Assembly (NCBI RefSeq): GCF_003334335.1 | Contig: NZ_QOWQ01000113.1 | Length of the DNA: 1,315 bases | From: Escherichia coli | Lineage (GTDB): Bacteria; Pseudomonadota; Gammaproteobacteria; Enterobacterales; Enterobacteriaceae | Reading direction: 5' to 3' (one strand) | Shown here: positions 1 to 1,315 of the stretch, piece by piece | How the letters are laid out: the number at the start of each line of letters is the position of its first letter | Numbering within the stretch: the first letter of the stretch is position 1 | Program-made: the position numbers

Positions 1-1315
1 GAGCCTGTTCAGGATTCTGTGTAAATACCTTTTCTCAGAAGTGGCCGTCCAGGCGGTCACCGAACTCGATAATAAAGCGGCTCATTGCCATACGCCAGTC
101 CCGCAGTGGCATCGTCCATTTCTGTGAAGCCGCCTGGATTGCCAGCCACACCACTTTTTTCACCGAGTCGTCTGTCGGGAACACTTTACGCTTTTTGATC
201 GCATGGCGGATCACGCTGTTTAGCGACTCGATGGCATTCGTCGTATAGATCACTTTGCGGATGTCCGTTGGATAAGCGAAGAACGTGGCAAGATTCGGCC
301 AGTTAGCCTGCCAGCTTCGGCTTATCTGAGGATAGCGACAGTCCCAGGCCGCAGCGAACGCTTCCAGTGCCTGCTGGCCTGCCTCTTCCGTGGGAGCCTG
401 ATAAATCGCTTTCAGGTCGCGAGTGACGGCTTTGTAGTCCTTCCATGACACGAAGCGCAGGCTGTTGCGCACCATATGCACGATGCATAACTGGATGCGG
501 GCCTTCGGATATACTGTGTTGATGGCATCCGGGAAGCCTTTCAGGCCATCCACACAGGCGATGAGGATATCGTTCAGACCGCGGTTTTTCAGTTCAGTCA
601 GCACATTGAGCCAGAACTTCGCCCCTTCATTTTCGGCCAGCCACATACCCAGCAGTTCTTTCTGACCTTCGATATTGATGCCCAGTGCCAGGAACACCGA
701 TTTGTTGATGACGCGACTGTCCTGCCGAACTTTCAGGACGATACAGTCAAGATAAACAATGGGGTAAACAGCATCCAGTGGTCGGTTTTGCCATTCTACA
801 ACCTGCTCCATCACGGCATCGGTAACCTTTGATATCAGTGCCGGTGAAACATCTGCGTCATACAGTTCTTTGAACGCAGCAGCTATCTCACGGGTGGTCA
901 TCCCTTTGGCATACAACGAGAGGATCTGGTTATCCATCCCGGTAATACGGGTCTGATTTTTCTTTACCAGTTGTGGTTCGAAGGTACCGTCACGATCGCG
1001 CGGAGTACGCAGTTCCAGTGGACCGTCGCCTGTGATAACGGTCTTTGTGGAAAAACCGTTGCGGGAGTTAGCTCCTGGTCTGGACTGATTTTTCTCATAC
1101 CCAAGATGGTGTGTCATCTCTGCATTGAGAGCGGCTTCAACGCTGAGCTTTTTCAGCAGCCGATCAAACTGACTGAGGTCTTCAGGGGTTTTGAGGTTTT
1201 TGGCCAGTTCGTTAGCCAGAGCCTGTAACTGTTTTTCGTCCATAAATTAACCTTCATTTGATGCTGGATTGAACATATCAAAATCAGGCAATTACACAAA
1301 TCTATGTACAGGCTC

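Follow-up and report, generated by a model that had tools for sequence, protein, structure and literature searches.

The leader of the insertion sequence IS1414 probably has a weak sigma-70 promoter of its own, which belongs to the extended -10 class, together with a working ribosome binding site and start codon and a weakened form of a fold-back RNA helix. In this model the promoter, made up of TGaTATGTT (1280..1272) and a poor -35 hexamer, TTGTGT, inside the left terminal repeat, would drive the transposase gene tnpA. Transcription would start near A1265 and produce an unstructured leader of ~22 nt, in which the ribosome binding site GAAGG (1255..1251) and the ATG (1243) would be free. Across the IS1414/IS285 group, the bases adjoining the repeat on its inner side are predicted to pair with the Shine-Dalgarno (SD) region in transcripts that start outside the element, and a resident promoter situated between the two arms would allow the element's own transcript to escape the pairing. 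Only a weakened version of the helix would remain in IS1414 itself. IS1414 is a carrier of the EAST1 enterotoxin gene that is widespread in E. coli. The start sites of its transcripts decide whether the output of toxin and transposase is intrinsic or depends on the landing site, and also whether the transposase limits its own synthesis.

The IS1414 element

The window, i.e. the whole stretch of 1,315 bp that was analysed, is a complete copy of IS1414, a member of the IS256 family. It is 100% identical to many copies on E. coli chromosomes and plasmids, in which the gene is named "IS256-like element IS1414 family transposase" by RefSeq. One long ORF on the minus strand (tnpA, 35..1243) encodes a 402 aa DDE transposase of the IS256 (Mutator) type. 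The tnpA product scores 426 bits against NCBIfam NF033543 (transpos_IS256; cut-off 150), and its residues 15-397 match the ISCth4 transposase structure 6xg8 ("Mutator family transposase") with E = 1.9e-111.

The terminal inverted repeats are 30 nt long and imperfect, positions 1-30 and 1286-1315 being 73% complementary. The tnpA-proximal left repeat (IRL; 1286..1315, minus strand) reads GAGCCTGTACATAGATTTGTGTAATTGCCT. The right repeat (IRR; 1..30, plus strand) contains two hexamers that face outward on the minus strand, TGAACA (11..6) and TTTACA (25..20). The sequence TGTGTAA occupies bp 18-24 of both ends and is kept in all relatives; repeats of this kind, imperfect, ~24-41 bp long and with a TGTAA-type subterminal motif, are those of the IS256 family. 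Two genomic copies identical to the window are bordered by 8-bp target duplications, taatctct and ggctgggt, within the 8-9 bp expected of the family, and a third copy has no duplication. Since the duplications lie directly outside identical copies, position 1315 is the true end of the element. Full copies of IS1414 are present in 474 of 5426 complete E. coli genomes, and fragments are present in most of them.

Signals in the tnpA leader

Read on the minus strand from 1315, the leader is GAGCCTGTACATAGATTTGTGTAATTGCCTGATTTTGATATGTTCAATCCAGCATCAAATGAAGGTTAATTT, followed by the ATG. Direct reading bears out the original prediction as to where the signals lie. The tnpA start codon (1243..1241, minus strand), which has an in-frame TAA two codons upstream, is 72 nt from the element end at 1315. 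The SD sequence GAAGG (1255..1251, minus strand) is inside the leader, 7 nt ahead of the ATG, and a leader of the same GAAGG-N7-ATG form starts YmgM in E. coli K-12. The hexamers TTGTGT (1299..1294, minus strand) and TATGTT (1277..1272) are separated by a 16-nt spacer (1293..1278), and the former, at bp 17-22 of IRL, is within the inverted repeat. The pair was also rightly described as weak: it agrees with the consensus at 7 of 12 positions.

One element had been overlooked. A TG extension precedes TATGTT (TGa, 1280-1278), which turns the candidate into an extended -10 (TGaTATGTT, 1272..1280, minus strand) with TG at -15/-14, A at -11 and T at -7. There is no recognisable -35 hexamer, TTGTGT having 3 of 6 consensus positions and the site falling under the threshold of the consensus scan. 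Promoters of the extended -10 class do not require a recognisable -35. Judged from the position of the -10, transcription is predicted to start at A1265 (1263..1266, minus strand), 7 nt past the hexamer.

The hexamers by themselves are not distinctive. The consensus promoter scan of the window did not report the leader pair, and its sole match was ATGACA-18-AAAAAT at 1117..1088. A sigma-70 weight matrix based on approximate consensus frequencies, whose scores are therefore rough, assigned the leader site 8.3 bits, which is second on the tnpA strand and third among 12,870 site-and-spacer combinations in the window. When the AT-rich leader was shuffled 2000 times, 658 of the shuffled sequences scored as high as the leader site or higher by the same rough matrix, and among 240 segments of equal length taken from the rest of the element, only 10 reached the score. 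The motif match alone is no better than chance for such an AT-rich leader, and the case for promoter function comes from conservation in relatives, not from the hexamer match itself.

The RNA that would begin at the predicted start of IS1414 is unstructured (-1.9 kcal/mol, z = +0.95). The scan of the window found no terminator, and no antisense promoter resembling pOUT of IS10 was seen on the opposite strand in the matrix scan. A literature search found no mapped transcription start for IS1414, IS285 or ymgM. From the arrangement and conservation of these motifs, we infer promoter activity in the leader and a start near A1265.

Conservation of the leader

A scan of one genome per species yielded 80 loci whose transposases are related to that of IS1414, at 66-94% aa identity. 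They include IS285 of Yersinia pestis and elements of Xenorhabdus, Photorhabdus, Pectobacterium, Citrobacter, Acinetobacter and many marine gammaproteobacteria, and their leaders are 56-78 nt long.

The sequence TTTGnTATnnT (T17, T18, T19, G20, T22, A23, T24 and T27) is invariant in all 16 distinct enterobacterial leaders; these leaders are kin, several of them differing by few bases, so that few independent substitutions stand behind the conservation argument. The -10 candidate is in the most conserved block of the leader in this set; elsewhere in the loop, variation is much greater. Within the element, variation is confined to -13, -9 and -8, the least critical and degenerate positions of a -10 element. 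The predicted +1 A (the homologue of A34) is at least 90% conserved in the enterobacterial leaders. The homologous site also has the top promoter-like score, by the rough matrix, in nearly all 16. The marine clade does not have the block; the best site there is TATCAT or TATTAT at bp 30-35, from which transcription would likewise begin beyond the 5' arm of the helix described below. Conservation of TTGTGT says nothing about a -35 function, because the hexamer is part of the repeat motif TGTGTAA and hence of a sequence involved in transposase binding. Taken as a pattern of substitutions, the conservation of the leader supports a putative resident promoter.

A covarying helix over the ribosome binding site

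In nearly every relative, the bases that follow TGTGTAAnT are complementary to bases ahead of the ATG that overlap or abut the SD. In an alignment of 54 distinct leaders, the two arms correspond to columns 10-17 and columns 45-52, forming a helix of 8 bp. Paired bases make up 95.1% of the helix cells in these leaders, compared with 30-44% if the columns of one arm are shifted by 1-3 positions against those of the other. Compensatory double changes occur in 7 of the 8 pairs, and the covariation score was reached by none of 500 shuffles. RNAalifold independently predicted the same stem, with six of the eight pairs. The sequence of the arms varies widely while pairing is kept, the 5' and 3' arms being, for example, GCCTGT/ACAGGC, GCCTATC/GATAGGC, GCTTATC/GATAAGC, GTCTATC/GATAGAC, GCCTAC/GTAGGC or GCCTGC/GCAGGC. 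The mismatches are asymmetric, with 37 G.U cells and 5 A.C cells. Such an excess of G.U over A.C means that the helix forms in sense-strand RNA, i.e. in the tnpA mRNA, and for the same reason a structure of DNA or of antisense RNA was rejected. No Rfam family matches the leader.

Accessibility of the SD was computed as the mean probability that positions -14 to -5 are unpaired. In the relatives this value is 0.00-0.2 for a transcript that begins at the element end, about 0.4 when the upstream segment is shuffled, and about 0.57-0.62 for a transcript that begins at the predicted resident start. The family thus has the RNA helix of a fold-back system, with its 3' arm over the SD. In the enterobacterial as in the marine clade, the start predicted from the top-scoring promoter-like site falls between the two arms, and the native mRNA would be without the 5' arm. 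From the computed folds we infer an effect of the helix on the translation of read-through transcripts. A covarying helix of this kind is a cheap, testable regulatory element for a subgroup of the IS256 family.

The helix in IS1414

In IS1414 the 5' arm is the AAUUGCCU region directly after TGTGTAA (1286..1292, minus strand), as located by the minimum-free-energy fold and by the covariation of the homologous columns. The 3' arm, AGG-U-UUAAUU (1246..1253, minus strand; fold and alignment), overlaps the SD and is degraded relative to that of the relatives. Its sequence is AATGAAGG in IS1414 and CAGGCAGG in a Pluralibacter relative that is 93% identical, and an O157 pseudogene copy is intermediate (AAAGCAGG). 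According to the fold, AAUUGCCU and AGG-U-UUAAUU still pair in IS1414, over only 7 bp and with a bulge.

The computed accessibility of the SD agrees with this decay. For the IS1414 transcript from the element end, the unpaired probability is 0.43, against 0.44 with the upstream segment shuffled, and 15 of 40 shuffles were at least as low; the value computed for IS285 is 0.03. By these folding calculations the helix is largely lost in IS1414, and the fold-back model fits the relatives more than it fits IS1414.

The leader of IS1414 has a second pairing possibility. A 10-nt complement of the IRL tip GAGCCUGUAC lies in codons 6-9 of tnpA (GUUACAGGCUC; 1219..1229, minus strand). It is specific to the IS1414 lineage and is missing from IS285-type relatives. 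It lends unusual stability to the 116-nt RNA that begins at the element end (1315..1200): the computed fold has -33.8 kcal/mol (z = -3.66), which none of 200 shuffles attained.

Other explanations for tnpA expression

The main alternative is that the leader has no functional promoter, that tnpA (and astA with it) is expressed only by read-through from neighbouring host promoters, and that the hexamers arose by chance in AT-rich sequence. This would agree with the insignificance of the motif match when taken alone and with the failure of the consensus scan to pick the leader pair. It would also agree with the loss, in IS1414, of most of the SD-sequestering helix that would otherwise block translation of read-through transcripts. 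Furthermore, the table of Kim et al. 2012 has no plus-strand start between dadA and cvrA in K-12, where a remnant of the element lies, but that table covers only starts assigned to the genes then annotated, so its silence is weak evidence. Two features of the family make read-through as the only source unlikely: the extended -10 is invariant in 16 relatives, with variation confined to the degenerate positions, and the placing of a promoter between the two arms of a helix makes sense only if there is a resident start.

A resident promoter could also be present and yet be minor. In that case tnpA would be driven mainly by a transient junction promoter of the circular copy-out intermediate, in which an outward -35 from the right repeat joins a -10 from the left repeat, as in IS256, ISCth4 and IS911. 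The family transposes through circles with spacers of 5-8 bp and hybrid promoters, as described in the ISCth4 paper (PMC7780238). Most relatives of IS1414 have suitable ends: the right repeat has TTTACA at bp 11-6, and the left repeat contributes TAAATT or TGTAAT at a spacing of 17 nt (8-12 bits by the rough matrix). The ends of the IS1414 type, however, have TGAACA or TGTACA with TACATA. In IS1414 itself TGAACA is at bp 11-6 and TACATA at bp 8-13, 17 nt apart with a 5-bp spacer, and this junction scores ~3.8 bits compared with 8.3 bits for the resident site, both by the rough matrix. A junction transcript would moreover start near left-repeat bp 20 and would therefore include the 5' arm of the helix. 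Given the low score and the presence of the 5' arm in its transcript, the junction promoter is ranked as a minor contributor in IS1414, and there is only a slim chance that it is the main source of tnpA mRNA.

It is also quite improbable that the conserved block TTTGATATGTT is bound by a host factor or by the transposase, or acts as an RNA loop signal, and is not a promoter element: the block adjoins the inverted repeat within the conserved helix loop, and conservation alone cannot tell these functions from that of a promoter, but the right repeat has no counterpart of TTTGATATGTT beyond bp 30, which puts the block outside a symmetrical transposase site, its variable positions fit a -10 element position by position, and the marine clade, in which TTTGATATGTT is missing, has another -10-like hexamer at the corresponding position.

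Possible autorepression by the transposase

If the leader promoter is used as predicted, its upstream half would coincide with a transposase site. In ISCth4, the N-terminal DNA-binding domain of the transposase makes base-specific contacts with repeat bp 14-25, and the site bound by the catalytic domain is nearer the repeat tip, as reported in the structural paper (PMC7780238). The -35 position of IS1414 is at repeat bp 17-22 and the spacer at bp 23-38. The hexamer TTGTGT thus falls within the region equivalent to the ISCth4 contacts, which makes autorepression a reasonable expectation. By homology with ISCth4, repression of tnpA by its own product through the left repeat, which the original prediction suggested, is plausible: bound transposase would occupy the upstream half of the promoter and would hinder RNA polymerase.

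astA

The EAST1 gene astA, which the literature places in IS1414, encodes 38 aa in another reading frame within tnpA (412..528, minus strand; ORF MPSTQYIRRPASSYASCIWCATACASCHGRTTKPSLAT). The original prediction saw no obvious promoter upstream of it, which is too strong. A candidate, CTGAAA (592..587)-17-TATCCT (569..564), is located at 564..592 on the minus strand, 36 nt upstream of the astA ATG, and has the top score on the tnpA strand, 8.7 by the rough matrix, which puts it on a par with the leader site, for better or worse. The candidate is within coding sequence, and for this reason its conservation is uninformative. A literature search for published start mapping or promoters of astA, IS1414 or IS285 found none that was usable.

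The left-end fossil of K-12 and YmgM

Between dadX and cvrA, most E. coli genomes contain a fossil IS1414 left end of 102 bp. It is annotated in K-12 MG1655 as "insertion sequence:IS1414 (partial)" at 1240188-1240289, and ymgM (b4740, 1240260..1240463) begins at its tnpA ATG. The fossil is unchanged in TTGTGT, TGATATGTT, GAAGG and ATG, and retains the in-frame TAA two codons upstream. YmgM was detected in LB cultures by immunoblotting of a chromosomal SPA-tag fusion (PMC6001520, Table 1), and ymgM-cvrA was listed as a convergent overlapping transcript pair in an RNA-seq study. Since the fossil leader starts a detected protein, it must be transcribed, and its ribosome binding site and ATG are used in vivo. 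A small protein of K-12 thus owes its translation start, and perhaps its promoter, to a 102-bp IS fossil.

The transcript could begin upstream. A simple scan found no clear terminator between dadX and the fossil, which makes translation of YmgM from dadAX read-through possible. The SMRT-Cappable-seq files have no entry for ymgM or the position of the IS1414 remnant. The idea that the 102-bp remnant is a MITE, with the repeat tip at one end and an internal inverted copy of the tip at the other, was rejected: its similarity to the element runs a few bases past the internal copy, and there is no target duplication.

Comparison with other insertion sequences

The IS1414 leader is of a known mobile-element design. 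In IS10 (pIN, fold-back inhibition) and IS50, a weak promoter lies at the element end, and the ribosome binding site is hidden only in transcripts that start externally. The IS1414 group resembles these elements in having a predicted weak resident promoter near the terminal repeat, and in placing the distal arm over the SD/AUG and the proximal arm upstream of the predicted start, so that in the relatives sequestration is predicted for read-through transcripts only. It differs in that IS1414 belongs to the IS256 family rather than to IS4, shows no antisense promoter like pOUT in the matrix scan, and has a largely decayed helix.

An SD-sequestering stem-loop has been established experimentally in IS200, where it is part of the native transcript (PMC4513863). 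Both systems have a weak promoter and a cis RNA helix in the left end that covers the SD, limiting binding of the 30S subunit in IS200. The helix of IS200, however, is present in its native transcript and is complemented by a separate terminator against incoming transcription, whereas the predicted start of the IS1414 group is inside the loop and the window has no terminator-like site. With IS256 and ISCth4, IS1414 shares a homologous transposase, repeats of ~30 bp, TGTAA-type subterminal motifs and 8-bp target duplications, and most of its relatives also share the outward TTTACA at right-repeat bp 6-11. IS1414 itself differs from them in having TGAACA in place of TTTACA, with TACATA at left-repeat bp 8-13, and its predicted junction promoter is weak. 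The passages of the ISCth4 paper (PMC7780238) that were consulted mention neither a resident promoter in the leader nor a helix over the SD.

The IS1414 leader is thus a well-supported instance of known principles of IS regulation, and the general picture is unchanged. A bolder and more speculative reading is that the IS1414/IS285 group possesses a leader module not described before, in which an SD-covering helix with a resident extended -10 in its loop sorts the element's own transcripts from read-through transcripts. IS1414 would then have lost both the helix and the junction -35. The output of transposase, its translation unmasked, and of EAST1, made from entering transcripts, might thus depend to an unusual degree on insertion site and read-through, and the left end in K-12 may have been co-opted for YmgM.

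In IS285 and the other relatives of IS1414, the same parts of the leader follow in the same order: the repeat, the 5' arm, TGATATnTT, the loop, the SD with the 3' arm, and the ATG at 71-72 nt. Unlike IS1414, the IS285 of Yersinia pestis has an intact helix of 7-8 bp (GCCTGT/ACAGGC) and no astA.

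Decay of the helix over the tnpA Shine-Dalgarno sequence

Relatives of the IS1414 transposase carry a covarying RNA helix in which the inner edge of the left repeat, the tnpA-proximal repeat, is paired with the Shine-Dalgarno (SD) region. When window positions 1246-1260 were compared with three of the related loci (L002, L085 and L028), IS1414 proved to be missing most of this helix, which its relatives retain. In IS1414 the 3' arm is AATGAAGG, compared with CAGGCAGG in Pluralibacter and AAAGCAGG in a pseudogene copy from O157; the SD accessibility predicted for read-through RNA is 0.43 in IS1414 versus 0.03 in IS285 of Yersinia pestis. 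The base changes responsible for this decay also created an out-of-frame ATG (window 1256-1258, - strand), which precedes the tnpA ATG by 15 nt. There is no SD sequence before this ATG. The ORF that it opens is 35 codons long and overlaps the tnpA start.

Many relatives of the marine clade (e.g., L044, L042 and L055) have a further hairpin in the leader, enclosed by the two arms of the helix over the SD sequence. This inner hairpin is 5-6 bp long (e.g., AGCCAgtaaTGGCT and ACCCTgacAGGGT), and its pairing is preserved while the sequence varies.

A host gene started by the IS leader

The dadX-cvrA interval of most E. coli genomes, including K-12, contains 102 bp of fossil IS1414 sequence, which derives from the left end and is 93% identical (L086 2189-2290, corresponding to NC_000913.3 1240188-1240289; also L084 1501-1602). 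The start codon of ymgM, the small protein product of which has been detected by immunoblot, is the tnpA ATG of this fossil. The host gene ymgM took its translation start from the IS leader, and the leader is possibly the source of its promoter as well.

Element ends

The left repeat begins with the tip GAGCCTGTA(C), and tnpA codons 6-9 contain a perfect copy of this tip in inverted orientation (window 1217-1229, pairing with 1306-1315); the copy is confined to the IS1414 lineage. It is predicted to close a long-range RNA stem (z = -3.66); as DNA, it resembles the tip of a right end without the subterminal motif.

At the right repeat (sites compared, window 6-11 and 20-25), most of the relatives L005-L073 have an outward-facing TTTACA at bp 11-6. 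Across a circle junction of 5-7 bp, this hexamer pairs with TAAATT or TGTAAT of the left repeat, forming a predicted strong junction promoter. The junction -35 has been lost in both IS1414 (TGAACA) and IS285 (TGGACA).

A full-length copy identical to the window, L083 (NZ_CP144885.1), is not flanked by a target duplication, which suggests a rearrangement between two copies.

The astA region

The top promoter-like site on the tnpA strand is CTGAAA-17-TATCCT (window 564-592, - strand). It lies within the tnpA coding sequence, with the astA ATG 36 nt downstream, and is a candidate for an independent astA promoter. The + strand, which is antisense to both genes, has ATAACT-17-TATACT (window 487-515), a site that scores equal to the predicted weak extended -10 promoter of the tnpA leader (TGaTATGTT, window 1280-1272, - strand) and may be an antisense promoter inside astA.

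The astA frame was compared in the region homologous to window 412-528 of L001, L002 and L003. In L001, a Brenneria element 94% identical, the ORF is open with an ATG start and its product differs (MPSTRCIRKPASSYASYIWCATACGSSPGRTTKPSPAT); the astA start position is ACG in Pluralibacter and Pantoea.
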